Virus record (IMG/VR): IMGVR_UViG_3300048629_000034 | Span: 49,116-113,115 of that record | DNA: 64,000 nt | Reading direction: 5' to 3' (one strand) | From: a virus | Taxonomy: Duplodnaviria > Caudoviricetes | Made by a program: the position numbers and the translations under genes | The notes under the pieces: model-generated | The model's database searches: none | Told to the model about the DNA's origin: nothing | The model's input: the letters and a program-made list of their open reading frames with translations, nothing else | In this document: piece after piece, positions 10,548 to 33,551 of the stretch | How the letters are laid out: each line of letters starts with the position of its first letter | How positions within the stretch are numbered: position 1 is the stretch's first letter

Positions 10548-10571
10548 TTTTATAACAAAAGGAACCAAACT

Positions 10572-12423: not shown

Positions 12424-12476
12424 GCTTAGTATTATTTATGTATTATATTGAAAAATAAACAATAAAAAGATAAATA

Positions 12477-12926: not shown

Positions 12927-13296
12927 CTAGTAGCGGGCGCAGTGGATATTACCCGACTATTAAACGTAATTTGTTTATTTTATTTTTCCAAAATATAGTA
13001 GATATGCGACAATTAATATCGACTACATTACAATTCTAATAGGCATTACAATTGTAAAACTCTCATGAACCAACAAAAAACTATAATAAGCAGTGTCTTT
13101 AGCTATTCAATACTTATTGTAGTTCTATTTTGGTTCATATTTTAAATACTCCATATAGACATGCACTCAATATCATACAAACATATAAAGGGGTGCCTTG
13201 TACTAAAATTGCTCCCTGATTTACTATCATAGAAATGCGCACTCTGATACGAGTGTATGTCTATATGGATCACTACAAATAACAAAGGAAATAAAA

Positions 13297-13821: not shown

Positions 13822-14198
13822 CAGATAGAGAATTAGCGTTCAAATGTAATTTAGATGGAAACTACTTTACTATAATGAAATATAGCAATATAAATAAGTA
13901 TAATTATTTTACAAACAGAGATAAAAATAAATACAACTCTGTGATTAAAGCATCAGAGCGAATTGAAATAATGTATCTAGCTGCAGAAAAACTATATTAT
14001 ATGTTCGATTCTGAATATAAATTATCAAAATGGATGCAAAAACACAATATAACTAACGGTTTCAATCATCAATCTGGAAACAGTTTAGGGTTAAGCATAT
14101 TTAGAGTAAAGGATGATGGTTACTTTTCTACAAAATATCCGTTTATTATGAAGCTTGAGAAGATATATAAAGCAATGGAAAGTGAAAATATGCTATAA
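13818..14198 (+). CDS. hypothetical protein, paralog of previous gene
   Basis: same shared motif as 13297-13821. Confidence 0.7.
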   Translation: MTDRELAFKCNLDGNYFTIMKYSNINKYNYFTNRDKNKYNSVIKASERIEIMYLAAEKLYYMFDSEYKLSKWMQKHNITNGFNHQSGNSLGLSIFRVKDDGYFSTKYPFIMKLEKIYKAMESENML

Positions 14199-14521
14199 TA
14201 AAGCAATTATACGCACACAAAGTATTCATATTATCAAGCTTATCGGTTTATCGAAAAAGTACGGCGTAGCATCTCCGTTAAGATGCTAAAATAATTAAAA
14301 TTATGATTTTTACGAATGGTAAAAACAAAATAATTAAAGTTCAACTTTTAAAGAATAAAGTTCAATGTTTAATGATCATAAGTTTATAATTTTAAAGAAT
14401 AAAGTTTAACCTCTGTATAAATCTGGAATAAATAGCATAAGGAATTACTTTTCCTAGATAAAGCTACCAGCAGATAAGTTTGATAATGTGAATACATAAC
14501 TACAAATTAAAAGGAATTAAA

Positions 14522-15133
14522 ATGGAAAAAATAAGTTTAACGAGATTACTAGCAAAAATTAAAATGTATAATAAACGATTAGCTAAGGTACAATTTTCTC
14601 CAGCTTTGCTGGCTAAAGGAAATAAAGAATTAGTAGAATTATCAAAAGAAAATGAGACATGTTTAGATGAATTGACTTCATACACCTCTATTTATGATAA
14701 CACCAACAATTTAAAAATTGTATTGAATGATGCAAATAATACAACTAAATTTGATGCAGGTCCACTTGGAAAAATTAGTATTGCACAAGCGATTATTATT
14801 AAAAATAATGTTGATAAATTAGTAATTATTAATAACCAATTAAAAGGTGAGTTAGCAACAGCTCAATATCACAGGGACGAACATAATGAGAATTTAAATG
14901 CTAAAATTGAAAGATTAATGTCTTCGAAAGCATCATCTGGATCAAATGATAAAAAGTTTATTTCAGAAATTACTAATAGTTTAAATAGTATTGAAAAAGC
15001 TGCTATTGTAAATGAAGACAAAATTAAAGAAAAAATTGAAGAATTACAAAAAGATATTGATTTTATTAAGGATGAACTAGATATGTATTTATCTGAAGTT
15101 AATGCAAGTACTTTTGTTGAAGTTGAATCATGA
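14522..15133 (+). CDS. conserved coiled-coil protein (ISLTRLLAKIK...LSEVNASTFVEV family)
   Basis: 203 aa, AAGGA RBS; terminal motifs recognised from a widespread phage/bacterial hypothetical family. Confidence 0.65.
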   Translation: MEKISLTRLLAKIKMYNKRLAKVQFSPALLAKGNKELVELSKENETCLDELTSYTSIYDNTNNLKIVLNDANNTTKFDAGPLGKISIAQAIIIKNNVDKLVIINNQLKGELATAQYHRDEHNENLNAKIERLMSSKASSGSNDKKFISEITNSLNSIEKAAIVNEDKIKEKIEELQKDIDFIKDELDMYLSEVNASTFVEVES

Positions 15134-15360
15134 AAATAAAACAAACGAAATCGGACAATTATAAGTTAATATTAAGTAAACGTGAGTTATTATTATTACA
15201 AGAAATCTTAAATAACAGTGATGTAACATTAGATGAAGGTTTTGATTTATGCATCATAAATAATGAATTATGCCCAAACGAAAAATATGAAAATGTTATG
15301 TTAGCAGAGGAAAAATCTACACGAATGTGGAAACAAATTAAAAATATAACAAGCATATAA
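15130..15360 (+). CDS. hypothetical protein
   Basis: ATGA overlap with previous gene. Confidence 0.6.
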   Translation: MKIKQTKSDNYKLILSKRELLLLQEILNNSDVTLDEGFDLCIINNELCPNEKYENVMLAEEKSTRMWKQIKNITSI

Positions 15361-15727
15361 ATAAAAATGCTGCCCTGATATTCTCTAGGGTAGAATTGTT
15401 TCGAATGTGAATATTCGATGGACAATACCTGAGGCTGATGAAGTATAGGGACAGCCCATGACACGAGGTGAATCGATGAAACTGTGTCGTACTAGAGTTG
15501 CATATGACAGTATTTTAATACTAAGTCAGAGTGATGACTGTGTTATATGTTCTAGTAACTTAAATAAAAAGGATTATGTATGAGAAGTAATGAATGGCCA
15601 TCGTGCGATGAATTAAACGGTGTTGGTGGGATTTAATATTAATTAAGGATATTATTGATTCAATTATAGGAGCAATGTATTGTAATTGGATCTGTAGTAT
15701 TCTTAATTAATATTAAAAGGGCAATAA

Positions 15728-15988
15728 ATGAATCAAGTAAAATTAGAACATTTATCATCGAAAAATGATAATCAATATTTCTGGATGATTTCAAATGAAA
15801 ATCTTCAGACAAAAGTGATGCAATATCATAATAATGAATACACACCAAATGCTTATTTTGGTGACAATCAGTTATGGTGTCATGAAGATAATAATCAAGC
15901 GATGGATAAATATGATATTTTTGGACCATTATTACCACCAGAAAGAATGATTGAAAATTCTAAAAAAGAAAGGAAAATAAATGAGTAA
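15728..15988 (+). CDS. hypothetical protein
   Basis: AAGG RBS. Confidence 0.55.
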   Translation: MNQVKLEHLSSKNDNQYFWMISNENLQTKVMQYHNNEYTPNAYFGDNQLWCHEDNNQAMDKYDIFGPLLPPERMIENSKKERKINE

Positions 15989-16150
15989 TAATTTTAATAT
16001 TATATTTACTAGTATCGTGATGCCTACAGTGTTTATAGTGCTTGTGTTTACTAGTGAAACATCAGACTCTGATGATACGTTCTTAATATGTTCAACTTTA
16101 TGGGCTGTCACAGGGGTTATTATGGGGTTCATCGATAGAAATTTTGTAAA

Positions 16151-16348
16151 ATGATAAAAAATGAAAAATTCAAATTAACATTATTCATAATATACACAAT
16201 ATTATACGAATGTTTGATTTGGGGTCTTGTTGCAAGCTCAATTTATTACTTGGAATGGAGCGAATGGACTGTTGTCATTGGAATATTAATGTCAGGAGTC
16301 CAATTAGACCCATCTTATTTCGGACTTGATTATGAAATAAAGGAATAA
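16151..16348 (+). CDS. small membrane protein
   Basis: two hydrophobic segments. Confidence 0.55.
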   Translation: MIKNEKFKLTLFIIYTILYECLIWGLVASSIYYLEWSEWTVVIGILMSGVQLDPSYFGLDYEIKE

Positions 16349-16660
16349 TGTGGTACAATTAATTAACATTTTAGATATTTACATAATTGGATTTTTATTT
16401 ACTTTACTGTTTTTAGAAATAATTGTTGCCTGATATTTGTGCGTCACTCTGACCTAAACTGGAGACTAATCCACTGAAGTCTTTAAAGTCGCTGAGGTAA
16501 CCAATCCGTCATCCTATGGCTCATCCATATTAAAATTTTTGAAGTAGTGGGCGACTTCAAGCGAGCTACTACCATAAGCAGTGTAACAAACAGTTAGTCT
16601 CTACTAGAACGTATTGTACGGTCTATGTAAGCTAACCTTTTTATACATCTATAATTTGTG

Positions 16661-18945: not shown

Positions 18946-19713
18946 ATGAGAATTAAACAATTAGGGAATGGTGGAGGTTTAAATCCTCAACTGACAAACA
19001 GTAGCTTCTTAATAGAATATACATCAAATCAGTTTTTATTGTTTGATTGCGGATTCAATATTATGGATCGATTAATAAAATTAGAAGAAGACTCAGTTAA
19101 ACACGATGCATCATTCAGAATATCTAAAATAGATATAGTTTTTGTTAGTCATACAGATGATGATCATATAGGTAACTTACAAACATTGATCTACTGGAAT
19201 TATTTTAAGAACCAAAAGAAGATGGAAATCATTTCACACAATGAAGTATTTGATATTATTGATAAAATGAATACTATTAAAACAGCAGGTATTGTTGAAG
19301 ATTTTAAATACTTCATTAAAATAGATATTTCAAACAGAAAAGAAGTGTATTATAATCTTGTTTCTGACTCTATGCTTAAATTGACGTTCATTAAGGCATA
19401 CCACGGATCTAGAAAATGTTATGGATTACTTGCAATCAAAAGCAACAAAGCAATATATATATCAGGAGATACTGTAGCGCATCCTTCAATAGAGAATACA
19501 GTAACAAAAGAAATTAAGTTACAACAAAACATTTCCGGATCAAATCTAAACTCAATTATGTTTCATGATTATAGCCACTGGGATTGTCCAAGTAAAAATG
19601 TTCATGCTTGTAAAACAAACTTCGAGGAAGAATACAGTAAAGAATTTAGAGATAAATTAATCAAGTATCATACAGGTGAGGATGACTTCAATAAAGACTG
19701 GAGAATACTATAA
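18946..19713 (+). CDS. metallo-beta-lactamase-fold hydrolase (RNase Z / Apyc1-like)
   Basis: LG.GG, LLFDCG, SHTDDDHIG, AYHG, ISGDT, FHD, VHA, KYH motifs. Confidence 0.85.
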   Translation: MRIKQLGNGGGLNPQLTNSSFLIEYTSNQFLLFDCGFNIMDRLIKLEEDSVKHDASFRISKIDIVFVSHTDDDHIGNLQTLIYWNYFKNQKKMEIISHNEVFDIIDKMNTIKTAGIVEDFKYFIKIDISNRKEVYYNLVSDSMLKLTFIKAYHGSRKCYGLLAIKSNKAIYISGDTVAHPSIENTVTKEIKLQQNISGSNLNSIMFHDYSHWDCPSKNVHACKTNFEEEYSKEFRDKLIKYHTGEDDFNKDWRIL

Positions 19714-19988: not shown

Positions 19989-20483
19989 ATGGAAAAAACA
20001 TTCACAGCACAAGAGGTGCAAGCTATAGCTACACAAGCAGTTGAAAATCACGTATCAAACGGAGGAAACGGTATCGTTTCTAAAGCATTAGATGGTGTAA
20101 CAGCAACAGGAAGAGCAATCGCAGAGGAAACTCAAGCAAACGCTAAAAGAGAAGCTGGTAGAAGACTATACGATAACATTGAGGAGTTAATTAACAGCTA
20201 TATTCTATCTAAAATGAATTTCATGCAAAGATGGTTAACTTCGGATAAAACTAAAAGAATGGCAGTATTAGTTGGTACATATACAGTTATTCACGCTATT
20301 AAATCTGGTGGTTTCGGATTAACTAATTATAGAATAAATCACGCTATGTTAGATTTATTATCATCTGAATGTAATGCAAGAATCATGTCATCTGTACTAG
20401 GTGGATTTGACACAAATATTGCTAAAGCATTATTTACTAAACCTGAAGTTACTGAAGTAGTTTCAGAAGTAGCAGGAGCATAA
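19989..20483 (+). CDS. hypothetical protein
   Basis: 164 aa, GAGG RBS. Confidence 0.8.
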   Translation: MEKTFTAQEVQAIATQAVENHVSNGGNGIVSKALDGVTATGRAIAEETQANAKREAGRRLYDNIEELINSYILSKMNFMQRWLTSDKTKRMAVLVGTYTVIHAIKSGGFGLTNYRINHAMLDLLSSECNARIMSSVLGGFDTNIAKALFTKPEVTEVVSEVAGA

Positions 20484-20485
20484 TT

Positions 20486-20620
20486 ATGGCAGCACAATCA
20501 GTATCAGATGCTGTAGCTGCTGCATTAGCGGCTGCAGGTACAACAACTACATCAGGAACTACTCCTACAGTGACAACTACGGACTCAGAAACTCTATCTG
20601 TATCTAGTAAAGGTCAATAA
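20486..20620 (+). CDS. 44-aa peptide MAAQSVSDAVAAALAAAGTTTTSGTTPTVTTTDSETLSVSSKGQ, candidate minimal ubiquitin-like modifier
   Basis: AGGAG RBS at 20474-20478; ends KG-Q just upstream of E1/E2/JAB genes; below track cutoff. Confidence 0.7.
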   Translation: MAAQSVSDAVAAALAAAGTTTTSGTTPTVTTTDSETLSVSSKGQ

Positions 20621-20705
20621 ACTAAATCATAGTATTTAGATAGATGGTTCTTAATATTCTGTTATTAGAACCATCTAGTGTGTATACTATACAAAGGAAC
20701 CGATC

Positions 20706-21122
20706 ATGACAATAAACAAAGATTATATTTTAGACCTGCTTAATAATCCAGATAATGGAAACAGAGAGTACCAACTCATAGTATTCATTCTAAAAAGTGC
20801 TGACGAACTAGATAAACTTTATTCTAAACTATTTAGCTGTGTAAAAAGTTACGAAAGGCACAGAGCGGCAGACGTAGTATCATTCAAAAACTCATTAAAA
20901 CAACATGCAAAAAATAAAGAAGACTTCTGCTTGTTTATAAGGTTAACTTCGAACAACACTAAATTAGGCTCAATATCTCATAGTGACTTCGATTATTTCA
21001 ATAATCTCTGTGACAAAATTGATGGATATGTATATTATCAGGACTTAAAAACATTAATAATAAGAGACATACCTCGACTTCTACATGAACCAAATGCATT
21101 CATACTACATGATACTAACTAA
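20706..21122 (+). CDS. LHDTN-tail family protein 1
   Basis: ends NAFILHDTN; immediately upstream of E1. Confidence 0.85.
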   Translation: MTINKDYILDLLNNPDNGNREYQLIVFILKSADELDKLYSKLFSCVKSYERHRAADVVSFKNSLKQHAKNKEDFCLFIRLTSNNTKLGSISHSDFDYFNNLCDKIDGYVYYQDLKTLIIRDIPRLLHEPNAFILHDTN

Positions 21123-21152
21123 CAAAACAATCTCAATAAAAAGGATAAACAA

Positions 21153-22157
21153 ATGACACAAGAAAACATAAACTTTAGCAAAAACTATTTAGCAGAACAA
21201 ATCAAATCACGATATGCTATGTTTCCACGAATTAGAGATGGTAAGTCTAATCTAATTATAGACTCTATAGCTCCACATTGGATATACAATAAATTAAAAC
21301 AAGAGCATCTAGATGATAATGGTAGAGCAACTATAGGCGATAAAAAACCTAAAACAGCATATGCTATATCAGCATACTTTGCAGATATCTTTAGAGTACC
21401 TAAAGTGCCACTAGCTGATCTACTTGACATACTTGGATATAAACCAAAAGAAATAAATTCTCTTCTATACAAAGTTGCAAAGAAGAAACATGATATTTGT
21501 TTAGTTGGATATGGTGGATCTGGACAAAACTTCACTTACTGGCTAACTGAAATGGCTGGATTACTTGGTAAACAGAATTTATTTGAATCATTAACTATAT
21601 ATGAGAAAGAACATGTTGAGTATTCAAACATCCTTAGATTTCCAAAAAATGTATTAAATCACAAAAATGGAACTACTCACAAACTTCATACAATGACAAA
21701 TGAAGGAATATTGGCTAGAGCAACAAATTTAATTCCAGATTATATAGACCAAGAAGGCGTAGACAAATTATTAGAGGATAAACCAAACACTATATTCTAT
21801 GGTGGTGGATCTATACCTACTATGGAAATGTTGTCTAACTACAATTTTGTATCTGCAACTCATGGAAACAATGACTGTACTTTAATTGTTAAGCCAGTAC
21901 AGGACAGTAGAATTCAAATCGAATCTTATGGAGTAATTATGCTATCTTCATTCTTTATGAACCAACTTAGAATGACTATAGGTTTTCTTGAGTTCTTGGC
22001 TCAGGATGATATTGATTGGACTCAAAGAGTATATCTTGACTATAACTTTACTACAGCAGAAACTAGAAGAGATAAGCACAAATATAACTGGCAACTAGAA
22101 CATAGTCAAACAATTGGACTAGAAGAAAATGACGAAGGAGACACTAATGTTAACTAA
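21153..22157 (+). CDS. E1/ThiF-family adenylyltransferase (ubiquitin-activating-like)
   Basis: ICLVGYGGSG (GxGGxG), YEKEHVEYSNILR (D.D.VE.SNL.R equivalent), downstream conserved Lys. Confidence 0.8.
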   Translation: MTQENINFSKNYLAEQIKSRYAMFPRIRDGKSNLIIDSIAPHWIYNKLKQEHLDDNGRATIGDKKPKTAYAISAYFADIFRVPKVPLADLLDILGYKPKEINSLLYKVAKKKHDICLVGYGGSGQNFTYWLTEMAGLLGKQNLFESLTIYEKEHVEYSNILRFPKNVLNHKNGTTHKLHTMTNEGILARATNLIPDYIDQEGVDKLLEDKPNTIFYGGGSIPTMEMLSNYNFVSATHGNNDCTLIVKPVQDSRIQIESYGVIMLSSFFMNQLRMTIGFLEFLAQDDIDWTQRVYLDYNFTTAETRRDKHKYNWQLEHSQTIGLEENDEGDTNVN

Positions 22158-23568
22158 TGACAAAAAATTAGAACAACTATTATTTGAAGAGGAAGCTGGT
22201 AATTTCTATGATATCTATTCTAAAGAGGAAAATGTAGGAGAAGATGATATAGACAAGAATCTTCATAATAATTGCGAGATAATATTTACAACAAAGTATA
22301 ACATACAGCAAACTCAAGACTTACTTACAGCAGGTAAATTTATTATGGATATAGATCCATTAATGGATAATTATAGCAATGAATATTTTAGTGATATTAC
22401 CTCGAAACTTGATGGAGACGATTTTTTAAATAATATTCTTAGGACCTCAGTTGAAATTGAAGGACAATATTCTTTTGCAGATGCAATAAATATTATAGCA
22501 AATGTAAAAATACAAATGGGTGATGAGTTTTATGGTGCATTGTTAATAGAACCAAATAAACAATACACATTTAATCCTCTACATCATTTAGTAGCGGTTG
22601 AGTATCTAAAGCACAGAGATGATAATGACACATTTAATGTATTTATATTTAGCAATTCTAATGTAGACAAATTTAATCTTGAAGACAATGCTAAGGAAAG
22701 AGCAAAAAACAATATCATTAATCAATTGGGAATGTATGCAATCAGAGGAATTGTTAAAAGCAGAAGAATTATTGACGAGTCAAGACAATCATTTATTGAT
22801 AATGTACTTGAAAATGATAAACACGTGCTTAAAACAAAAATATCTTATTCTGCAGAGAGAAATGACAATGGAGACGAAATATATGTAGTGCCACAACAAC
22901 TTCTAACGAGTGGCTTAGCAATACCGTATTATGGAACAACATTGTACAAAGTAACAACAAATTCATCAGGAGACAGAAGTTCGTATGGTTCACACATTAC
23001 ACCAATGCTTGGAGTAAATACAGCATCTGGATGGTCAGGGAGAAAAGTAGATCATGCAAAAGATATTACTTTTGACTCTGTTTGTACAGGAAACGAAGTT
23101 TCAACAACTATCAAAGGAATTTTAACGCATAATCATTCTAATCTTTCATCTCCATATTTTAGTAATTGTGTAATGGAAGGGTGGCATGAATTATCGCAGG
23201 AGGCAATAAATACATCACTAATGATATATAAGGATCTTCTTAACAAGGATACATGTAACAAGCTTGGATTTGATTGTGATGAGGCTCATAAATTAAACAC
23301 AAGCAGCGACAATACTGACAAAGCGGAAAATGAAAAGTTAATTGAATCATGGTCAAGCTGTCCATTTAATGACATATCATCTTCAGAGCCGTGTCCAGCA
23401 CTGGTATCTTTAAAAGAATATACAGATTACTTGATTGGAGATTCACTATCTAATTTAACAGCTGGAGAAATATTACTTAGATACAGAGAAGCAAATAAAT
23501 ACCTATCTGGAATCGATACAGACTACACAACGCCAGATGGTGCTAAATGCGAACCATGTACAGAATAA
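22147..23568 (+). CDS. protein with C-terminal-half prokaryotic E2-like domain
   Basis: HITPM.GVN...SVCTGN...NHSNLSSPY matches the E2 pattern P..N..xC.G and N..SP; located between E1 and JAB; start moved to ATG 22147 (AAGGAG RBS). Confidence 0.6.
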   Translation: MLTNDKKLEQLLFEEEAGNFYDIYSKEENVGEDDIDKNLHNNCEIIFTTKYNIQQTQDLLTAGKFIMDIDPLMDNYSNEYFSDITSKLDGDDFLNNILRTSVEIEGQYSFADAINIIANVKIQMGDEFYGALLIEPNKQYTFNPLHHLVAVEYLKHRDDNDTFNVFIFSNSNVDKFNLEDNAKERAKNNIINQLGMYAIRGIVKSRRIIDESRQSFIDNVLENDKHVLKTKISYSAERNDNGDEIYVVPQQLLTSGLAIPYYGTTLYKVTTNSSGDRSSYGSHITPMLGVNTASGWSGRKVDHAKDITFDSVCTGNEVSTTIKGILTHNHSNLSSPYFSNCVMEGWHELSQEAINTSLMIYKDLLNKDTCNKLGFDCDEAHKLNTSSDNTDKAENEKLIESWSSCPFNDISSSEPCPALVSLKEYTDYLIGDSLSNLTAGEILLRYREANKYLSGIDTDYTTPDGAKCEPCTE

Positions 23569-23584
23569 AAAAAAAGGAATACAA

Positions 23585-24814
23585 ATGAAAAAACAAACAT
23601 ATAGACAACCTAAGCCGCAAGCCCAATTTGACTATCTAACTAGACAATTTAAAACTAGACAAAAAGATTTAATTAAGGATAATAAATCAACAAATAACTA
23701 TGGTATATTATTATTGAACCAACAAAACCTGGACAACATCAGACATAAATCAGAGGTAAATATTACAACTCATGATGAATATGGATTTCATTACAGAGCT
23801 TTAGTAGCTAGAGTTGTAACTGGATCGGGGAATACATCTGAGTTTCTTGACATTTGTATTCCAACTGTATATTATAATTACAAACAAGAAGTGTCTGGAG
23901 GAGAAGTTGAATTTCATTTAGCGGATGTTGAAGCAGCGGCAAACGAAGTAAAACCTCTATCAGATATGATGGTTAACAAACTATTTGAATCTGACATTTC
24001 ACTGGGGACTAGACTTAATAATCTATTTAATGAATTGAAGATAAAAGCAGAGTATTTCGATGTAGGGGTTAACTCTATTCATATGCATCCAGCAGGACTA
24101 CATAGATTCTCTGGTGGAGACCTTGACACTGATCATACTAATCCTGGAATTTGTTTTCCTCTTAGTAAAGCAGAAAAAGAAACTAATTTTGCATCTATTG
24201 TAACTAGACGAGGTAAAGGAGTTATTCTTGGACATACTGAATATAGAATTGCAGATGGCGATGTATCTACAAATGAACCAATCAATTACTATCACGGTAA
24301 ATCAATTACTTTAGTAAAAGGATATGCTCCAACAGACGATAGAACTACTATGCAAAAGTTACTTGGATTTAAAGTAGATGAACCAATTAAATCATATACT
24401 GTATCTGACGGTTTAGACTTGTCTGACTTTGCAAACAAAGTAAATGAACTATTCAATGAGTCTGATTATGTTGCATTTGATGATACTGTAATTTCAGATA
24501 ATGTATCTAAATATGTATACAAACCAAAGCCAGTAGCAAAAAAGAAACCAGCAATTGCAGCTTCTAAGCAAAAAACTATTACAGCCAAACATGTAGAACT
24601 AAAGATAGTATATACAGATAAAACCACTGGAGATAAATATACTCAAGATGATATTGATGACATAATTGAAGAACTAATGTATTCGAGTACTGGAGTAAGC
24701 AAAGCAGAACTTATGCAACTAGAATACAAAGAGCTAGTAGATAGATATGAAGAATATATTATGAGACCAGGAAGCTACTCTTTTGGAGGATTTGGGTATG
24801 ATTATGACTATTAA
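23585..24814 (+). CDS. JAB/MPN+ metallo-isopeptidase
   Basis: HDEYG (catalytic E), QEVSGGEV, SIHMHP..HRFSGGD (HxH..S..D); start moved to ATG 23585. Confidence 0.8.
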   Translation: MKKQTYRQPKPQAQFDYLTRQFKTRQKDLIKDNKSTNNYGILLLNQQNLDNIRHKSEVNITTHDEYGFHYRALVARVVTGSGNTSEFLDICIPTVYYNYKQEVSGGEVEFHLADVEAAANEVKPLSDMMVNKLFESDISLGTRLNNLFNELKIKAEYFDVGVNSIHMHPAGLHRFSGGDLDTDHTNPGICFPLSKAEKETNFASIVTRRGKGVILGHTEYRIADGDVSTNEPINYYHGKSITLVKGYAPTDDRTTMQKLLGFKVDEPIKSYTVSDGLDLSDFANKVNELFNESDYVAFDDTVISDNVSKYVYKPKPVAKKKPAIAASKQKTITAKHVELKIVYTDKTTGDKYTQDDIDDIIEELMYSSTGVSKAELMQLEYKELVDRYEEYIMRPGSYSFGGFGYDYDY

Positions 24815-24831
24815 AAACAAAGGAAACCACA

Positions 24832-25698
24832 ATGGAAATTAAATTCGACGATTATGTATCAGCAGCAGAGCATTTGCCAGAGAAAGCAGATAACACTTTC
24901 TTTATCAGTCCATCTGCATTTTATGATTTTATAGATAAAAAGCATCTTTGGTTCAGACAACAATTTATGAAGGAAGATCAATTTGAAGGTAATACTGGAT
25001 CCAATCTTGGTAACATAATTCACAAAGCATGTGAAATGTACACACAAGAAGTAGATGTAACTGATGAGCAAATTAATGAGTATATTGATTCATTACCAGA
25101 TAATGATGAGATAGACAAACAAACAATCAGAGATAACTACAGATCAATGATTGATACTGTATTGACTAGATTTTTAATGGATACGAATATTGATGAGACA
25201 GAACAATTTATTGGCTATGATTTATCTGAACATGTAACTGTGGGTGGAACTTTCGATTACACTAGAACAGATAGATCTGGCAGACAAATTATTGGCGATT
25301 ACAAGACTACAGCAAGTAAGTTACCTCCAAAGAAAATCGAACAGAAACATAAAATGCAAGCATTAATATATGCATATATTATGGATAAATCAGATCTATA
25401 CATGCGACCAGATATGTTAGAGATTGTATATATCACAAGGCATCATGATCCAGTTATCAGCGAGAAAACAGGCAAGCCAGGCAAAGAATATTTTCCAGAT
25501 GTATCTGTACTTCAATATGAAATTACAGATAATGATATGGCATATATTGATTCATTAATGAGATTATGCGCGGAAACTATGCATTTCTTCTTTGACAATC
25601 CAGATAAAGCATATATCATATTTACTGACTACAGACTAAAGGGTGAATTTTTCGAAACATATAAATATACTGAAGAACAGGAACAACCACTGTTCTAG
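24832..25698 (+). CDS. PD-(D/E)xK (Cas4/RecB-like) exonuclease
   Basis: ISPS, GNIIHKACE, GGTFD, IIGDYKT, QALIYA. Confidence 0.85.
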   Translation: MEIKFDDYVSAAEHLPEKADNTFFISPSAFYDFIDKKHLWFRQQFMKEDQFEGNTGSNLGNIIHKACEMYTQEVDVTDEQINEYIDSLPDNDEIDKQTIRDNYRSMIDTVLTRFLMDTNIDETEQFIGYDLSEHVTVGGTFDYTRTDRSGRQIIGDYKTTASKLPPKKIEQKHKMQALIYAYIMDKSDLYMRPDMLEIVYITRHHDPVISEKTGKPGKEYFPDVSVLQYEITDNDMAYIDSLMRLCAETMHFFFDNPDKAYIIFTDYRLKGEFFETYKYTEEQEQPLF

Positions 25699-25711
25699 AA
25701 AGGAGAGCAAA

Positions 25712-25990
25712 ATGTATTCAGATGATACAATAAATGGAATGACTTATGAAGAGTATTATAGAGCATCTGTAAACGAAGGGTTAATTGAGTCTGGTTATAT
25801 TTTAATCAATAAACAAAGCAAATATATACATCCAATATCATTCAAATTTATGAATAAATATTATTCGTCTAACCACAAAAGAGTTGATAAGTATTCATAC
25901 AAGAATGAATATTGGATAAAACATACACAGCAGTCAGATCTGTATAAAATATATATGATTTTAACTAATAAAGTACACAGGATAATTTAA
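25712..25990 (+). CDS. hypothetical protein
   Basis: AAGGAG RBS before ATG 25712. Confidence 0.6.
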   Translation: MYSDDTINGMTYEEYYRASVNEGLIESGYILINKQSKYIHPISFKFMNKYYSSNHKRVDKYSYKNEYWIKHTQQSDLYKIYMILTNKVHRII

Positions 25991-25992
25991 TT

Positions 25993-26202
25993 ATGATTTC
26001 AAATTTAACACATAAGTTTCTAGATATAACAAACATGTGGATGATATATGGTTTCTATGGTAAATTCACTCGAACAACTTCACATACCTGGTTCTATCAG
26101 GAATACGAACAATTAGGTGGACTATACTCTAATACAACAATAACCCCAAAATCAACACTACATTGGTGGAAATTATGGCTACTAGGAGACAGTAATGACT
26201 AA
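25993..26202 (+). CDS. hypothetical protein
   Basis: ORF in operon. Confidence 0.5.
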   Translation: MISNLTHKFLDITNMWMIYGFYGKFTRTTSHTWFYQEYEQLGGLYSNTTITPKSTLHWWKLWLLGDSND

Positions 26203-26887
26203 TGAAATACCAGCACATATATTGGTTAAAGACCCATTGTATATATATTATTACTTACAAGAACCAAAAGACTCTAATAATGTATTCGAGAGAACAGCAG
26301 AGTTAGTATCTGATGAAAAAAGTCACAATACTATAGCAACAATCAGATGCTCAACGATTAAGAGAAGTGTTTTAAATAATAATACAATTATACGTGGATC
26401 ATATGACAGTTATATAGACACTTACGATAACTCTATTCATAAAGTATCACTTATCTCATCTAAAACATTAGCAATTGAATCTAAAGATAATTCAAGCACA
26501 CATCTAGAGTTAGCTATTGTAAATTGGTTATTGCAAGATGATTCATACAAACTTCAGTTAGATGCAATAGTAAAAGACGCAAGTTATTATAATCCGGATG
26601 CTGGACCATCAGAGCAAACTGTATATTTTGAACCAATACCTGATATAGAGCAATATATTACTAATAAATTAAACAAAGTTCAGGCATACATTGATAATCC
26701 GAATACTATAGAAGAATGTAAAGATCTTAGATGGTATAAGAATAAGCAGGGAATTACGAAGAAAGTTGCATGTGAATTATGCCAATACAATTCTGTATGT
26801 AAATTTTACAATAAATCTAAATCAATCAGCAACAGAAAAGCTAAATCAAATATAGCAAACAGACTAAAGAATTTGAAGAATCTATAA
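26195..26887 (+). CDS. degenerate Cas4-like PD-(D/E)xK protein
   Basis: IRGSYD strand; C-terminal C...W...CELCQYNSVC cluster; no D/E-x-K motif seen. Confidence 0.5.
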   Translation: MTNEIPAHILVKDPLYIYYYLQEPKDSNNVFERTAELVSDEKSHNTIATIRCSTIKRSVLNNNTIIRGSYDSYIDTYDNSIHKVSLISSKTLAIESKDNSSTHLELAIVNWLLQDDSYKLQLDAIVKDASYYNPDAGPSEQTVYFEPIPDIEQYITNKLNKVQAYIDNPNTIEECKDLRWYKNKQGITKKVACELCQYNSVCKFYNKSKSISNRKAKSNIANRLKNLKNL

Positions 26888-26976
26888 CTGGTTCTTCAAA
26901 TTCAATACATATAAAAGAAATTTACTATATTTTTTATATGTATTGAACAACCAGATAAGCAAATAATGAATAGGAG

Positions 26977-27369
26977 ATGAGTATAAAAAGACAAAATAAC
27001 AAAACATTTATTTGTGAGATAGGGATGGAACTAAATAGACTTCCAAGGAATGGATATTTACTTATGCAAGCTTCCAATAATAATGAATGGCTACAACTTA
27101 CTAGCACTTTACGTGAAAATCATAAATATTTAGGCGTGCCACTGTCTAAAGAAATGCTAAATTTATTTGAGGACACAAGAAATAAAGACTTTTTTATGTT
27201 ATGTATTCAAAAAAATCAACACCACGAATTAAAGTTATCATTAGTATCTAAACTTTACGTAAACAGTTTAAGTTTTAAAAAAATGAATTATATATATAAG
27301 ATATTTGACATTTCTACATTCTTTAAAAAAACAACAACAAATCAATTCATACTACACGACACTAATTAA
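26977..27369 (+). CDS. LHDTN-tail family protein 2
   Basis: ends NQFILHDTN. Confidence 0.85.
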   Translation: MSIKRQNNKTFICEIGMELNRLPRNGYLLMQASNNNEWLQLTSTLRENHKYLGVPLSKEMLNLFEDTRNKDFFMLCIQKNQHHELKLSLVSKLYVNSLSFKKMNYIYKIFDISTFFKKTTTNQFILHDTN

Positions 27370-27388
27370 TTAATATAAAGGAGAATGA

Positions 27389-27730
27389 ATGCTAAGAAAA
27401 ATATCAGAATGCAAAATACTAAGCGAACTTGAAAAAGTAATTGACAACAACAGAAGAGTTGTAATACTAGCTGATAATAAAGAAGAGTGGGATGATATTT
27501 TACGGTTTATATTTTCTCAACAAAAGTATGAATTAACAGCATCAACTTCTAAATTAGACACTTGGTTGCCATATTATGTAAAGTATAAAAGAGACGCAAT
27601 AGTAATCACAAGGTTAAACGACACATTGAGACTTACTCACACAGAGCGTATATATGCCAAAGAAAGCTCTGATATTATAATAAGCATAAACAGAAGAGAT
27701 AACCAATTCATACTGCACGACACAAATTAA
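27389..27730 (+). CDS. LHDTN-tail family protein 3
   Basis: ends NQFILHDTN. Confidence 0.85.
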   Translation: MLRKISECKILSELEKVIDNNRRVVILADNKEEWDDILRFIFSQQKYELTASTSKLDTWLPYYVKYKRDAIVITRLNDTLRLTHTERIYAKESSDIIISINRRDNQFILHDTN

Positions 27731-27739
27731 GGACATTAT

Positions 27740-28076
27740 ATGCTAGACAAATCATCGCAATATAAAATATTAAATGAGCTAAAGCAAGTTATAAATGACG
27801 ACGAAATAGTAATCATATATACAAGGAGCAAAGAAGAAATGGGAAGAAGCCATAAAATTTATATATTCTCAGCAAAAATATAGTTTTTATAAAACGGGTT
27901 CACTATTAGAATGGATAAGTTATTATAATGTAAAAAGTAGTTTTTGTATATTCTTGTACAGAAAAAACGAAAAACAATTCTATATAAAACATGGAGTCCT
28001 TAAGTATAAAACGAAATATAATACGATAATTAAAGTAAACAAAAACAGTAATTTTATCTTACATGACACAAACTAA
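27740..28076 (+). pseudogene. LHDTN-tail family protein 4, frameshifted by one extra A at about 27837-27839
   Basis: removing one A gives a 111-aa ORF MLDKSSQYKILNELKQVI..KEEWEEAIKFIYSQQKY..SNFILHDTN, a close paralog of 27389-27730. Confidence 0.8.
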
Positions 28077-28109
28077 AAAATAATACATATAAAAGAGGAG
28101 ATTGATTAA

Positions 28110-28427
28110 ATGAAAACAAAAATTACGAAAAATATATTAACAAAACAAGAATTATTTGAAGAAGTAGAGAATAGATACAACTATCATAATGAGAAGCCTG
28201 CAAAATGTACTGATACAACAAATAATGTTGCATGCAAGTCTAAAAAACTATACCTTCATTATCTAGAAAAATACGATAAAAACAAAGATTCAAATTTATT
28301 CGATTATTTCAAATGGTTGAGAACACAACGAGCAGAAGTATTTAATCTACCTAAAACTACAATCAAAAGAAGGACAAGAATATGGGAAGTGAATGCAAAG
28401 ACAACACTGAACTATCTAGACCATTAA
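28110..28427 (+). CDS. hypothetical protein
   Basis: GAGGAG RBS. Confidence 0.7.
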   Translation: MKTKITKNILTKQELFEEVENRYNYHNEKPAKCTDTTNNVACKSKKLYLHYLEKYDKNKDSNLFDYFKWLRTQRAEVFNLPKTTIKRRTRIWEVNAKTTLNYLDH

Positions 28428-28444
28428 CAAAATAAAGGAACCAA

Positions 28445-29689
28445 ATGACATACAACAGTAAGCAGATACAAGCAATAAATATGGCATCAAGCCTAAAACA
28501 TAAGGTGTGCTACATATCAGGAGCTCCAGGAACTGGTAAATCTACATGCCTTAAACAAATCATTGAGAACATAGGAGCTAATGGTTCTGAAATAGTTGTA
28601 ATGGCTCCGTCTCACAAAGCTAAACAAGTAATTGAAAAAACAATAGACGATAAGTCACTTGAGTATATGACAGTGCAGAAATATTGTGGACTTAAACCAA
28701 AAATAAATAGTAAAACAGGAATCCAGACTTTTGTAGAAGAGTTTAATCCGAAGGAACAGACATGCGATGTTGCAGTAGTAGATGAAGCTAGCATGTTGAC
28801 GCAGAAAATGCTAGACAAAGTTATGAGAACAAGCAATCATGTAATTCTATTAGGAGACATTCATCAGCTTGAAGCAATAGAGGATCCAATACCTGAACAA
28901 ACTTTGTCAGATATACCAGTAATAGAATTAACTGAGCAGATGAGACAGAAATCAATCCATTCTGATCTGTATAAAGTTATTCAGATTTTTCTTAAGCGTA
29001 AGAATAACAATACAACTCGTACATTTAATTTTGATACTGAGTCTGATGGATCTATCATTGTGCACAAAGATCTAAGCGATTTTATAGATACATTTATTGA
29101 ATCTAAATCTACAAGCAAGAGAATCATTGGATTCAGAAATGTATCAATTGACTATATTAATTCTGAAATTAGATCAAAACTATCACTACCTGATTATCCA
29201 ATAGTTGGAGATATTATAGTACTTCAGCAACCTATAACTAGACGAGGGAAGAAGAATAATAGAGTAGTTAAGGAGATTGTGTATAACAATGGGGATGAAT
29301 TAACAATCAAGAAAATCACACCAGTCGATAATAACACTGACTATCCAACATTCATGATGGCAGAATGTATCAGACACGGAGATATGGAAACTAGAGAAAT
29401 CAAAATACCATATGACTCAATCAAGTTTAATAACAATCTGCAGAAATTAGCAAATTCAATCAACAATGGAACAAACAAGAGATTATGGACAGAGAAATAT
29501 TATCCATTGAAAGAATCTGTAGCCCACTACAAATTCAACTACTGTGGAACTACACACAAAGCTCAAGGAAGTACTTATGACGAAGTATATATCTTGCATA
29601 AGGACATGATTGTAGCCGGAGATAATTATAACAGACTTATGTATGTTGCAATTTCGAGAGCTAAGACTGTAGCACATATAAAGGATTAA
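28445..29689 (+). CDS. SF1B DNA helicase (Dda/RecD-like)
   Basis: GAPGTGKS, APSHKA, VVDEASM, GDIHQL, LTEQMRQ, TTHKAQGST, YVAISRA. Confidence 0.92.
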   Translation: MTYNSKQIQAINMASSLKHKVCYISGAPGTGKSTCLKQIIENIGANGSEIVVMAPSHKAKQVIEKTIDDKSLEYMTVQKYCGLKPKINSKTGIQTFVEEFNPKEQTCDVAVVDEASMLTQKMLDKVMRTSNHVILLGDIHQLEAIEDPIPEQTLSDIPVIELTEQMRQKSIHSDLYKVIQIFLKRKNNNTTRTFNFDTESDGSIIVHKDLSDFIDTFIESKSTSKRIIGFRNVSIDYINSEIRSKLSLPDYPIVGDIIVLQQPITRRGKKNNRVVKEIVYNNGDELTIKKITPVDNNTDYPTFMMAECIRHGDMETREIKIPYDSIKFNNNLQKLANSINNGTNKRLWTEKYYPLKESVAHYKFNYCGTTHKAQGSTYDEVYILHKDMIVAGDNYNRLMYVAISRAKTVAHIKD

Positions 29690-29691
29690 TT

Positions 29692-30096
29692 ATGGATAAG
29701 CTTCTATTGCATAACCAAAACTGGAACAACATAGAAAAACTAGCAGTAAAAGAAAACGACAAATTAATAATATTCATAAATATAAATAATTTAAATACAT
29801 TTAATACAATAACGGATCTATTCGGAAGACAAATAGGATCGATGGATGATATGCGTTATTATTTTACTGAAGATAAACAATACGTATCTTTGTATTTACA
29901 CAAAGATCGCAATGGAGATCCCTCTCAAGGATGGACAGGTACTAAAGAGATAGATCTACATGCGGATATTATAAAGGTATTAAACAATGAGTTCTATTCA
30001 AACATTTATCCAGCAGCCATAAAATGCATTATTGACGCTAGGCATATATCAAATATAAATACAGACCAGAGGATAATTTTACATGACACAAATTAA
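29692..30096 (+). CDS. LHDTN-tail family protein 5
   Basis: ends QRIILHDTN. Confidence 0.85.
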   Translation: MDKLLLHNQNWNNIEKLAVKENDKLIIFININNLNTFNTITDLFGRQIGSMDDMRYYFTEDKQYVSLYLHKDRNGDPSQGWTGTKEIDLHADIIKVLNNEFYSNIYPAAIKCIIDARHISNINTDQRIILHDTN

Positions 30097-30457
30097 CGAA
30101 AAAGCATTAGCTAATTTTCTTAAATATCAAGCAGATGGAGACAACATAGACAAAGATGTAATTATTGTTGAATCTATTGATGAATGGAATAAGATATTTG
30201 AATGTCTATATAAATATAAAATATACGGACAGAGATCTGGTCTGTCGTTAAAAGAATGGGAAAGTGTATATAGAAGATGCAATAATAATAATGGGGATTA
30301 TGCGCTAAGGTTAGCTAGTGAAATAAACCTAAATCATTCAAGTTCTGATTGGATGATAGCGAACTACATTGAAGACACAAACGGCAAAGCAATACATTTC
30401 AAGGATATACCTGGAGTACACAGATTGAATCAATTTATTCTGTACGATACAAATTAA
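30083..30457 (+). CDS. LHDTN-tail family protein 6
   Basis: ends NQFILYDTN. Confidence 0.85.
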   Translation: MTQINEKALANFLKYQADGDNIDKDVIIVESIDEWNKIFECLYKYKIYGQRSGLSLKEWESVYRRCNNNNGDYALRLASEINLNHSSSDWMIANYIEDTNGKAIHFKDIPGVHRLNQFILYDTN

Positions 30458-30476
30458 TACACAAGGAGGCGCTATA

Positions 30477-30872
30477 GTGAAAGATATTAATTCAATAAAT
30501 AATATTGACGAACAACAATTAAGTGGCTTAATGAAAGAATTAAAGTCAAACACCAATAATAGCTTTGATGCTCTATTTATATATAATATTAAAGATTCAG
30601 ATAGTTTTCATGATATTATGAAGTTGTGGGGAAGAGGAGACATTTGTGGAAAAGATCACATTGGATATCCTCGGGCATTAAGTCTCGAACAGGATGGAAC
30701 ACAAGGATGGGAAGAACAATTTAAATATAGCATTACTACGAATGATCAGATATTACGTCAAGCTGAAGTTTTTTATATTAAATGGAAAAAAATGTATTCG
30801 CTAGACTACAATACGCTATTAGATGGCAAAAATAATAATCTAAATCAATTTACATTATACGATACAAACTAA
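30477..30872 (+). CDS. LHDTN-tail family protein 7
   Basis: GTG start, AGGAGG RBS; ends NQFTLYDTN. Confidence 0.85.
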   Translation: MKDINSINNIDEQQLSGLMKELKSNTNNSFDALFIYNIKDSDSFHDIMKLWGRGDICGKDHIGYPRALSLEQDGTQGWEEQFKYSITTNDQILRQAEVFYIKWKKMYSLDYNTLLDGKNNNLNQFTLYDTN

Positions 30873-30896
30873 TCAACACACAGAAGGAGAACCAAT

Positions 30897-32708
30897 ATGA
30901 CACAAGAATATAAACTCAGAGATTATCAACAGGAAGCTGTAGACGAAATAGACGCTGGATTTTCATTTGGAGAAGATGAAATCATACTTGAAGCATGTAC
31001 ATCATTCGGCAAAACAAGTGTAATATGTGAACTAGCTAGAGTACATAAGAAGTCAGTTACTATTCTTGTGTCATTAACTCCATTAGTCCAACAAATAAGC
31101 AATACACTAACACTTATGGGAGTTGATCATTCAATCATTAAAGCAGGTCGTGATAGTGAATTTGATCCAAATGCACGAGTGCATCTTGCTATGGCTCAAA
31201 CATTGCATTCACGAATCAAAGCAGATAAGATGGAATTTACAACTAATTTGCTTATTCAGGATGAATATCATATATCTTATAATACCAAGCGTACAGATGA
31301 AATCAAGCAGGTACTTAAACCTAATAAGATATTGGGTCTAACTGCAACTCCATACGATGCTAGAGGATACAGATTATCTAATACAGCAGAGATTGTGGCT
31401 ACAGCACACGAGAAGGATCTTGAGTCTCAGGGTTTCCTAGCTCCAGTCAAATACTATATACCAGAATGGTCTGAAAAAGTAGATTATGATAGAGTAAAGA
31501 AGAACGGTGGTGATTATACTGGTACAGCATTGAATGAAATTGTAAATACAGAGACTCATATAGAACAAGTAATTCAGTCAATGAATAAACTTAATGCACA
31601 AAACAAGAAAACTATTGTATTTTGTTCTACAATTGAGCAGTGTGATTATATTACAAATAGATTAAAACAGCATGGATATTTAGCTGAATCATTTCATAGT
31701 AAAATTGGTAAGCAAAACTCAGAACTAATGCTTGATGTATTTACAAATAATGCTGATAATTATATTGAAACAGGACCAAAGAAAAAACTATCTGAGCTTG
31801 AATCTGGTTCTTTATTTGACGACAAACCAGTCAAACCTCAGCCTAGAGCAGTCAAATGTTTAGTATCGGTGAGTAGACTAACAACGGGCTTCTCTGTTGA
31901 AGACATACAACTTGGAGTAGCAGTCTCTAAAACTTTAGTTAGATCTAAATTTGTACAAATGGCTGGCAGATTGCGTAGAATACATCCAGATAAGCAATTT
32001 GGTGAATTTCTTGATTGCGCTCAACTTATATCTACACATGGATTTCCTGATGAAATATATGTTCCTCCACCTAGAATTGGAATATCATTAGCAGATAAGA
32101 AGGCATTAGCTGATGCAACTAAGAGTATACCTGATATCAGAATTGTATGCGATGACGAATTATCAGAACCAATTACATTAGATAAATATAATCTTCGTTT
32201 GGTTGAATTAAAGAACACAAAGAAACGTCTAACTCAAATGGATGTTCCTGAGCTTAGAGATAAACTATTAGTTGAATCTGATTTGCTAACTACATTCTCT
32301 ATTATTACTGTATTATTTGATAAAGTATTATGTGAGCCTATGCCTGACAAATGGGGAAACGACTCAAGGGGTTATGTAGCTTCAAATGGTAAAACAGTTG
32401 TTGGCTTCGTTAATCCCCGTACAATCGAATGGATAGCGTCTAAATGGATGGAAGCATACGAAACTCTACCACAGTATTTTAAAGATAAATATCTTAGAGC
32501 ACTTAAGACTAGATCTATTAATGCAATCAAACAGAATAAATCTATATATTCTCTTGGATTCTTTATTGAATTTCTTATGGAGCAAGACTCATTTGACCTT
32601 GAGATTGAAGATAGTACGACTAAAGAAGAACCAAATATATATGATAATGATCATACTGACAATGCAGATGATTATGAAATTGATGAGGATGGAGATATTC
32701 CATTCTAA
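30897..32708 (+). CDS. SF2 DExH-box helicase (UvsW/YejH-like)
   Basis: LRDYQ, TSFGKT, QDEYH, GLTATP, LTTGFS, QMAGRLRR. Confidence 0.9.
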   Translation: MTQEYKLRDYQQEAVDEIDAGFSFGEDEIILEACTSFGKTSVICELARVHKKSVTILVSLTPLVQQISNTLTLMGVDHSIIKAGRDSEFDPNARVHLAMAQTLHSRIKADKMEFTTNLLIQDEYHISYNTKRTDEIKQVLKPNKILGLTATPYDARGYRLSNTAEIVATAHEKDLESQGFLAPVKYYIPEWSEKVDYDRVKKNGGDYTGTALNEIVNTETHIEQVIQSMNKLNAQNKKTIVFCSTIEQCDYITNRLKQHGYLAESFHSKIGKQNSELMLDVFTNNADNYIETGPKKKLSELESGSLFDDKPVKPQPRAVKCLVSVSRLTTGFSVEDIQLGVAVSKTLVRSKFVQMAGRLRRIHPDKQFGEFLDCAQLISTHGFPDEIYVPPPRIGISLADKKALADATKSIPDIRIVCDDELSEPITLDKYNLRLVELKNTKKRLTQMDVPELRDKLLVESDLLTTFSIITVLFDKVLCEPMPDKWGNDSRGYVASNGKTVVGFVNPRTIEWIASKWMEAYETLPQYFKDKYLRALKTRSINAIKQNKSIYSLGFFIEFLMEQDSFDLEIEDSTTKEEPNIYDNDHTDNADDYEIDEDGDIPF

Positions 32709-32723
32709 TATAAAGGAAATACT

Positions 32724-33540: not shown

Positions 33541-33551
33541 AAGGATACAAC

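Follow-up and report, generated by a model that had tools for sequence, protein, structure and literature searches.

A conserved phage module of E1-like, E2-like and JAB-like proteins with a linked micro-peptide, a candidate system for ubiquitin-like activation

Gene layout and its recurrence among uncultured phages

The window analyzed in this work is the right-hand 64 kb (64,000 nucleotides (nt), with a G+C content of around 32%) of the 113-kb IMG/VR virus record IMGVR_UViG_3300048629_000034, and it contains co-linear genes for an E1-like, an E2-like and a JAB-like protein (the triad), preceded by the gene of a 44-amino acid (aa) peptide and a stable RNA hairpin (Table 1). A preliminary description of this DNA had proposed there an operon for ubiquitin-like conjugation composed of five open reading frames (ORFs), encoding the peptide, a protein ending in LHDTN, E1, E2 and JAB, and the five ORFs and every motif quoted for them were found in place. 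In order to compare this arrangement, related loci were retrieved (L002/L003, L004-L014 and L016-L018) and analyzed with hidden Markov models of the three proteins, which located the order E1, E2, JAB in 15 of the 15 distinct loci examined. The full order of peptide, hairpin, E1, E2-like protein and JAB recurs in 14 distinct loci from uncultured phages, with E1 and the E2-like protein as separate ORFs in all of them; the closest relative is L002, whose E1 is 63% identical. No match was obtained by tblastn with the E1, E2-like and JAB proteins against 50,697 GenBank phage records or by blastn with the region against the GenBank phages, and no relative was detected when 185,579 prokaryote genomes were scanned for E1 patterns.

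Table 1. Features of the window discussed in the text; positions are counted from its first nucleotide.
Feature	Position	Strand	Remarks
164-aa protein	19989..20483	+	Stop 2 nt before the peptide ATG; counterpart by position of the DUF7566-type proteins
44-aa peptide, candidate modifier or E1 substrate	20486..20620	+	Ends SSKGQ; AGGAG ribosome-binding site 8 nt upstream
Stable RNA hairpin	20629..20690	+	Just 3' of the peptide stop; minimum free energy -23.3 kcal/mol, z -4.1
LHDTN-tailed paralog	20706..21122	+	Between peptide/hairpin and E1; outside the conserved module
E1-like adenylation-domain protein (predicted)	21153..22157	+	ThiF/MoeB/Cap2 superfamily; GYGG at 21507-21518; NILR at 21627-21638
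E2-like protein	22129..23568	+	SVCTG with Cys319 at 23083-23085; HSNLSSP
JAB-like protein	23537..24814	+	E81 and HMHPAGLHRFSGGD at 24080-24121
PD-(D/E)XK nuclease	24832..25698	+	Pfam PDDEXK_1, 1.2e-11
Nine further L(H/Y)DTN paralogs	26977-27369, 27389-27730, 27954-28076, 29692-30096, 30083-30457	+	Tail
Nine further L(H/Y)DTN paralogs (rest)	30477-30872, 32724-33182, 33169-33540, 33552-33926	+	Tail
MBL-fold hydrolase	18946-19713		Lactamase_B_2, 6.8e-10; weak Apyc1 match
Ribonucleotide reductase, large subunit	51363-54503		1046 aa

The peptide of the window is rich in small residues (11 Thr, 9 Ala and 7 Ser), and a homologue of 38-50 aa is encoded directly upstream of E1 in 14 of the 14 distinct loci in which that region is present, its ORF having been overlooked by gene callers in several of the relatives. 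The peptides have in common an N-terminal helix motif, ..(D/E).IAAA.AG.., and a C-terminal motif, SL.T.(K/S)S.SG, in such a way that 13 of the 14 show a Gly followed by 1-9 variable residues. The tails found after the motif were Q, GI, GK, GY, LV, AK, NR, FSC, IAV, VAA, LVA, F and DNSDRLDC, and a Gly with a short, non-conserved tail behind it is what one would expect if the peptide were a precursor subject to trimming. None of the 14 peptides ends in Asn, and the terminal Gln of the window peptide is not kept in its relatives. With 38-50 aa, shorter than any beta-grasp domain, the peptides are not expected to adopt a beta-grasp fold, and the earlier statement that the window has no beta-grasp ubiquitin-like protein (Ubl) beside its co-linear triad and tiny candidate modifier was supported. 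A modelled complex of two E1 copies with the peptide, which had a predicted local distance difference test score (pLDDT) below 50, gave a score of 0.00 in a run without controls and neither supports nor opposes binding.

Two further features accompany the peptide gene. A hairpin of unrelated sequence is located at the equivalent place 3' of the peptide stop in the 13 loci that were folded (13/13, with z values from -1.5 to -7.6), and it is likely an attenuator or a transcript-stabilising element. On the other side, the upstream gene has its stop next to or inside the peptide gene, suggesting that both products are made jointly and in excess over the enzymes. The identity of this upstream gene differs by lineage. 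It encodes a protein of 160-178 aa in the window phage, L002 and L004, a small protein with the C-terminal domain of DUF7566 in L006, L017 and L018 (Pfam 1.5e-30), and an unrelated protein of 81-107 aa with the motif KY.I.VNG ... VY.LEG in L005 and L007-L013. Alignment of the first group with the second by hhalign (E 0.016, probability 2.9%) is only suggestive of a relationship between their sequences, and the 164-aa protein of the window may be a partner or a target of the module. The third group was considered as a hidden beta-grasp Ubl; only one member matched ThiS, with an E of 0.11, and no conserved C-terminus was found. These proteins could be small beta-grasp-like partners. In the loci with the 81-107-aa protein, E1 carries an N-terminal extension of 100-300 residues. 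Regarding DUF7566 itself, the small proteins next to the peptide (e.g., L006 3344-3706) correspond to its C-terminal third, the full-length form being a hypothetical protein of around 316 aa from the early region of T5-like phages, near A1/A2 (MK770119.1 107289-108239), and the family matches 491 GenBank phage records.

The E1-like, E2-like and JAB-like proteins

Searched as single sequences and as profiles, the three enzymes had no significant match among Pfam families, PHROG families or PDB sequences. An initial search yielded nine homologues of E1, whose alignment showed the motifs GYGGTG and E.D.VE.SNLLRFP; weak matches to Pfam ThiF (PF00899) were found in four of nine family members (best E of 0.02), below the gathering threshold and not in the window protein. 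The AlphaFold model of the protein (pLDDT 77, predicted TM score (pTM) 0.81) gave 50 matches by Foldseek at E≤1e-3, and all those listed were members of the E1 superfamily, the best being MccB (2.6e-5), followed by ThiF, MoeB, Uba4, Atg7, UBA5, PaaA, AclA and TcdA. By VIA-align, 228 chains were matched at Z≥8, with the E1 domain of Cap2 as the best one (Z 13.0 over 182 aa, root mean square deviation (rmsd) 3.7), the Bil E1 (8tz0) as the second (Z 11.6), and Uba6, Uba1, MoeB, ThiF and MccB at around 11.

The residues of the nucleotide site were compared through an hhalign alignment with MoeB and ThiF from E. coli (E 8.8e-4, probability 23%), in which the protein pairs with MoeB at G119xGG/G38xGG, E151 and E153/D62 and D64, N159/N70, R162/R73 and K177/K86. 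Over 16 sequences, the number used for residue conservation, the Gly, Asn, Arg and Lys of this site are invariant, and E151 and E153 vary (consensus IxExDxVE). The N-terminal R20-Y21 resembles the RYxRQ motif and is followed by an insert of around 75 residues. No Cys is invariant in the family, in contrast to the catalytic Cys with which canonical Ub-type E1s (Uba1, Cap2 and BilD) form a thioester with the Ubl, and the window copy has only Cys116 and Cys242, neither of them invariant. The model matches and the aligned ATP-site residues support the E1/ThiF assignment of the preliminary description, and we consider solid the call of an E1-superfamily adenylation domain, as predicted by the model.

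The E2-like protein belongs to a larger family. An exhaustive profile search of a library of 1.84 billion proteins returned 373 representatives (clusters at 50% identity) with E≤1e-3, of which 188 had E≤1e-30. Its model had a mean pLDDT of 56 and a pTM of 0.61. Foldseek searches with this model returned nothing below an E of 0.9, and Atlas searches by features and by shape returned unrelated rows of low TM only. In a wide VIA search over 48,161 representatives, UBC/UEV folds took 22 of the top 50 places (Z 3.1-4.2 over around 95 aa, rmsd 3.2-3.6), with alignments covering residues ~20-146 of known E2s, and in a second structure search the top 14 were all UBC/UEV. Both searches gave Z values of 3.0-4.2 and rmsd values of 3.2-4.2, except for one row of the second search at 7.7 Å. 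The portions of the model that match UBC, residues ~39-90 and ~240-345, are apart from each other, in such a way that a UBC-like core would be split by an inserted domain. This alpha/beta domain, at residues ~95-205, is the best conserved and best modelled part of the protein (pLDDT 70-91), with the motifs G..FYGALL and NPLHP and with G136, N149 and H152 (the last two in NPLHP) as invariant residues, and no convincing structural match was found for it.

Conserved residues of the whole protein include N149, H152, Q257, P266, Y268, G269, N297, C319, G321, H336 and N338, which are invariant in 19 full-length sequences and kept at 90% or more in a set of 146 that includes fragments. From this conservation, Cys319 is the candidate catalytic Cys. 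The assignment as an E2 thus stood in part: UBC folds lead two structure searches and one Cys is invariant, but the Z values do not exceed 4.2, an HPN motif is absent and no match to the E2 families (PF00179, Prok-E2) exists at the sequence level. From the model, we consider it fairly probable that the protein has a true E2 fold.

In the JAB-like protein, the JAMM signature E...HxHx7SxxD (E81, H182, H184, S192 and D195) does not vary among 16 sequences whose identity is otherwise 25-52%. The predicted JAB/JAMM domain occupies residues ~40-265 and is followed by a variable, partly coiled-coil C-terminal region. None of seven members matched the JAB families of Pfam (PF14464, PF01398) at E≤1, with the same outcome in a six-frame search of the genome, and the gathering threshold was not reached. 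A profile of the domain gave seven matches in the PDB, six of them to JAMM enzymes (AMSH-LP three times and STAMBP twice) or to a JAB fusion (BubCD from Citrobacter), with the motif aligned in each case and E values of 0.16-1.7. The nearest entries in the ESM Atlas were Prok-JAB clusters, with feature scores of 0.86-0.88 (mark 0.9) and a shape TM of 0.44 on a low-confidence model. Each of the PDB and Atlas lines is weak when taken alone, and together with the invariant motif they make a JAB enzyme likely, in agreement with the original assignment, as JAMM enzymes were the only specific PDB matches of the profile. Matches of the protein to PI3K p85 were discarded as spurious, drawn by the coiled-coil region. 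In L009/L010 the JAB gene appears in two ORFs, 12044-12478 and 12834-13760, around 355 nt apart, which could be due to an insertion, an intron or a frameshift.

The LHDTN-tailed paralogs and the surrounding genome

The gene between the hairpin and E1 encodes a protein with a C-terminal tail which, as had been described, is shared with nine other genes of the window: from 20706 to 33926, the + strand has ten ORFs that finish with L(H/Y)DTN-stop, and the nine further ones alternate with helicase genes. In the genome of the window, L-x-x-T-N-stop occurs 11 times in the forward sense versus 2-4 in the reversed control. The codons of the tail vary synonymously (ATA/ATC/ATT, CTA/CTG/TTA, CAT/CAC, GAT/GAC, ACT/ACA and AAC/AAT), so the constraint acts on the peptide and not on a DNA element, and a promoter or terminator overlapping the ORF ends was ruled out for this reason. 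The preliminary description regarded the family as ten different heads defined only by the C-terminus, which does not agree with the end-to-end alignment of its members in many pairs (3e-8 over 113 aa, 1e-13 over 83 aa, 5e-7).

An analogous L..TN family was found only in L002, where five ORFs at 8370-15236 end in F.L(A/T/E)QTN. The last seven residues are fixed within each phage and shift together between the two (HD here and AQ in L002, whereas F, L, T and N-stop do not change), which suggests a shared reader or binding partner of the tail. The positions of the genes are not equivalent in both genomes, which suggests frequent insertion or duplication. In L002 around 100 nt separate the peptide from E1, and this interval holds no tail gene. 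Since such a gene is absent there and in all the other relatives, the one at 20706-21122 is an insertion.

No recurrent C-terminal tag was found in the other triad loci, L..TN-stop appears at the chance level of the control in five whole genomes that carry the triad, and the exact FILHDTN-stop was detected in one other IMG/VR contig only, in an isolated frame of 53 codons with no triad nearby. The proposed co-occurrence of E1, E2 and JAB with a shared C-terminal tag is consequently broken, and with it the idea that E1 and E2 attach ten effector heads through LHDTN, as the triad and the peptide occur in 14 loci and the tail family in two phages only. These comparative data, a decoupled tail and a conserved peptide, favour instead the alternative that had been offered at the same time, in which the 44-aa peptide would be the modifier. 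Judged from its sequences, the tail family is a fast-diverging, lineage-specific array of paralogs, separate from the module, and it offers a clean example of such an array, its members being united by a C-terminus of seven residues with co-variation from one phage to the other.

The module is located in an arm of the genome devoted to replication and nucleotide metabolism, with Dda-like and DEAD helicases, a PD-(D/E)XK nuclease, an RNA ligase and ribonucleotide reductase genes. The nuclease found 3' of the triad occupies the equivalent position in L002, L004 and L006. Since an ORF of 1675 aa matches the N4-type virion RNA polymerase (phrog_2206, 3.5e-121) and the primase is 23-26% identical to those of N4-like phages, the N4-like label given to this phage in the preliminary description holds, only at a distance. 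A scan for sigma-70 promoters and terminators gave no signal above the level of shuffled sequences. Some neighbouring genes also deserve mention. Around 1 kb upstream of the module, a metallo-beta-lactamase (MBL)-fold hydrolase is by its sequence a candidate cyclic-nucleotide-degrading anti-defence gene; its counterpart in L002 is an outright member of the Anti-Pycsar Apyc1 family, and the gene stands beside the module in these two phages and is not kept there in other relatives. The large subunit of ribonucleotide reductase matches PHROGs on residues 2-451 and 906-1045, the insert of around 450 residues between them being possibly an intein. A reverse-transcriptase gene (RVT_1, 15688-16437) was found 3' of the helicase in L004, a relative that carries the triad.

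Proposed cascade, rival readings and known systems

We propose that this locus is a conserved phage module for the ubiquitin-like activation of a micro-peptide through a cascade similar to that of Cap2/Cap3, in which the part activated is a flexible C-terminal tail with Gly or Ala at its end and not a beta-grasp domain; to this reading we give about an even chance. What was observed is the set of genes, with their folds and motifs, their strict synteny and the conservation of the peptide, and from this we infer the chemical steps, the cleavage site and the target of the cascade as follows. The 44-aa peptide would be made in excess, through translational coupling to the upstream gene and the hairpin placed after it. 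JAB would trim the variable tail after ..S-(K/S)-G, in the window peptide removing the final Gln, and E1 would then adenylate the exposed C-terminal carboxylate. Because E1 has no conserved Cys, Cys319 of the E2-like protein is proposed to attack the acyl-adenylate directly, taking the peptide as a thioester, and the E2-like protein would hand it over to a nucleophile of a target from the host or the phage, in a conjugation that JAB could reverse. There are precedents for both unusual aspects of this scheme, as a substrate without beta-grasp fold and with a single C-terminal Gly/Ala is activated by E1 and E2 and cut by JAB in the case of cGAS in type II CBASS, an anti-phage signalling system based on cyclic oligonucleotides (Jenson et al. 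2023, PMC10097602), and E1s without catalytic Cys act in the Bub pathways (PMC11601596). A bolder version, in which the peptide is a beta-grasp-free "micro-ubiquitin" matured by a JAMM enzyme, activated by a Cys-less E1, loaded on a split UBC and conjugated to host or phage proteins during infection, is put forward tentatively, as we find it possible and somewhat doubtful.

Several data weigh against this proposal. Searches of Pfam and PDB sequences with the E2-like protein, even with a profile of 146 sequences, gave no match, its assignment as an E2 comes from Z values of at most 4.2 on a model with a mean pLDDT of 56, and the sequence has no HPN motif, the sole conserved Asn upstream of the Cys being N297, 22 residues before it. 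The curated Pfam thresholds were missed by all three enzymes. In E1, the Mg-binding Asp of MoeB (D130) pairs with Gly219, which is Pro in the consensus of the family, although a shift of 1-2 residues is possible; most relatives have YGAPD, with an Asp one residue later, versus YGGGS in the window phage and L002. With Gly219 at this place and YGGGS in these two phages, competence for adenylation is probable but not assured. Finally, the peptide of L002 has a Glu where the others keep the conserved Gly.

Other readings of the same genes were weighed. The locus could encode a pathway for a ribosomally synthesized and post-translationally modified peptide (RiPP) or a peptide-nucleotide, where E1 would modify the peptide by adenylation or cyclisation of its C-terminus like MccB, PaaA and AclA, JAB would be a leader or tail peptidase, and the product would be a toxin, a signal or an inhibitor in the form of a free small molecule and not a tag. 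MccB is in fact the best Foldseek match, with PaaA and AclA also listed, E1 has no invariant Cys, the conserved N-terminal helix of the peptide could act as a leader, and the layout of a short precursor gene, a hairpin and then enzymes is that of mccA-mccB. However, Cap2, the Bil E1 (11.6) and the Uba enzymes outscore MccB (11.0) by VIA, the peptide has no terminal Asn, export or immunity genes were not seen among the neighbours, and the E2-like Cys protein, of which we know no equivalent in RiPP clusters based on ThiF-like enzymes, is strictly co-inherited with the module, so we hold this pathway for unlikely. To a similar degree unlikely is a role in counter-defence, in which E1, E2 and JAB would strip or misdirect host conjugates made by type II CBASS, Bil or Bub, the peptide being a decoy or an inhibitor. 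It would fit with Cap2 and then a bacterial Bil E1 as the nearest structures of E1, with a module found only in phages, as the 185,579 prokaryote genomes scanned with E1 patterns gave no match, and with the Apyc1-like anti-defence candidate 1 kb upstream in the window phage and L002; but this gene is not kept beside the module in other relatives, the sequences have diverged extremely from Cap2/Cap3 and match nothing in Pfam or among PDB sequences, and a strictly conserved, co-transcribed and precursor-like peptide argues for the module's own substrate.

A third possibility is that the trimmed peptide works as a sulfur carrier with a C-terminal thiocarboxylate, like ThiS, MoaD, CysO and QbsE, with JAB trimming it in the manner of QbsD/Mec+ and the Cys protein relaying a persulfide for the thio-modification of phage DNA, tRNA or a cofactor. 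The peptide has 38-50 aa and a single Gly plus a tail, whereas all the sulfur carriers that we know of are beta-grasp proteins ending in GG, and no rhodanese, cysteine desulfurase or sulfurtransferase domain was found in the module or its conserved neighbours; these data make the idea improbable, even if MoeB and ThiF, both strong structural matches, also lack a catalytic Cys and the module is in a region of nucleotide and DNA metabolism, with ThyX near it in relatives and radical SAM and ribonucleotide reductase genes here. In the same direction, Iyer et al. 2006 (PMC1779556) described JABs that go together with small carriers having additional residues at the C-terminus. The least probable of these readings, with hardly any chance left, is the attachment of the ten tailed proteins through their shared tail by an MccB-like E1 that recognizes a C-terminal Asn, together with E2. 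The tail is under constraint at the protein level and ends in Asn, the residue modified by MccB, one of its genes is inside the module, and it co-varies between two phages (HD versus AQ) with T-N-stop fixed. Yet at least 12 other lineages, including five whole genomes, carry the triad and the peptide without the tail family, the gene inside the module is an insertion absent from the closest relative, the tailed proteins are ordinary diverged paralogs, and FILHDTN-stop is present elsewhere in a single IMG/VR contig that lacks the triad, a decoupling by which this reading is already largely refuted. What is left of the probability corresponds to something else.

The activation of the micro-peptide, if confirmed, would have several consequences. 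To our knowledge, the bacterial E1/E2/JAB cascades described so far are anti-phage systems of the host (type II CBASS, Bil and Bub); here, a set of these proteins too diverged for recognition by Pfam and PHROGs forms a core module conserved across uncultured phages of a widespread group, and it comes with a strictly linked micro-peptide in place of a ubiquitin fold. Should the peptide be conjugated, a flexible tail would be the least that a tag needs for activation by E1, phages would be using ubiquitin-like tagging offensively, and this would be the first complete conjugation cascade encoded by a virus of bacteria, with the smallest known E1-activated tag. With five genes and one substrate of 44 aa, the system is small and directly testable in vitro.

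Regarding its relation to known systems, the proposal resembles Pup in concept. As a modifier, Pup is small and disordered, and its C-terminal Gly-Gly-Gln/Glu undergoes processing ahead of ligation, and the window peptide ends in K-G-Q; unlike here, Pup depends on the glutamine-synthetase-like PafA and on Dop and not on E1/E2/JAB, and the terminal Gln is not kept in the phage peptides. Sulfur carriers processed by JAB offer a second parallel, since in QbsE/QbsD, CysO/Mec+ and the E1/JAB neighbourhoods of Iyer et al. 2006 exposure of the carrier's C-terminal Gly by the JAB, followed by E1-like adenylation, is known or predicted (PMC1779556), but these have beta-grasp carriers and sulfur-transfer domains, neither of which was seen in the phage module. 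With MccB/MccA, PaaA and AclA the phage locus shares a short precursor gene directly upstream of a ThiF-fold enzyme without catalytic Cys, whereas MccA is a heptapeptide ending in Asn, its clusters have no E2-like protein or JAB, and the phage peptide has a Gly and a variable tail.

The closest similarities are with the bacterial conjugation systems. Bil (BilA-D) and Bub (BubA-E) are also operons of E1, E2 and peptidase; the Bil E1 8tz0 matches the phage E1 (Z 11.6), BubCD, a fusion of JAB and E1, is among the few PDB matches of the phage JAB domain, and the Bub E1s have no catalytic Cys either (PMC11601596). On the contrary, both encode beta-grasp Ubls of 1-3 domains, with none in the phage module, and Bub works through oxyester (Ser) intermediates with a serine protease of the DUF6527 type, in place of which the phage family has an invariant Cys and a JAMM site. 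Type II CBASS, with Cap2 and Cap3, has the same set of E1, E2 and JAB, and the E1 domain of Cap2 is the closest to the phage E1 (Z 13.0); its activated C-terminus is also on a protein without beta-grasp fold, with a single Gly/Ala end at which JAB cuts (PMC10097602). It differs in that Cap2 is a fusion of E1 and E2 with an E1 Cys, whereas the phage genes are separate and E1 lacks an invariant Cys, in the lack of similarity to the phage enzymes at the sequence level, and in the lack of a CD-NTase or effector gene near the phage module, whose neighbours are DUF7566-like proteins, a PD-(D/E)XK nuclease and helicases. In addition, the candidate substrate is here a free peptide of around 40 aa, and the carriers are phages of lytic type and not bacterial defence islands. 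Full-text searches of the literature found no paper on a phage-borne set of E1, E2 and JAB accompanied by a peptide, and we regard the module as a variant of the E1/E2/JAB conjugation systems not described before, which would be categorically new if the peptide is a conjugated tag.

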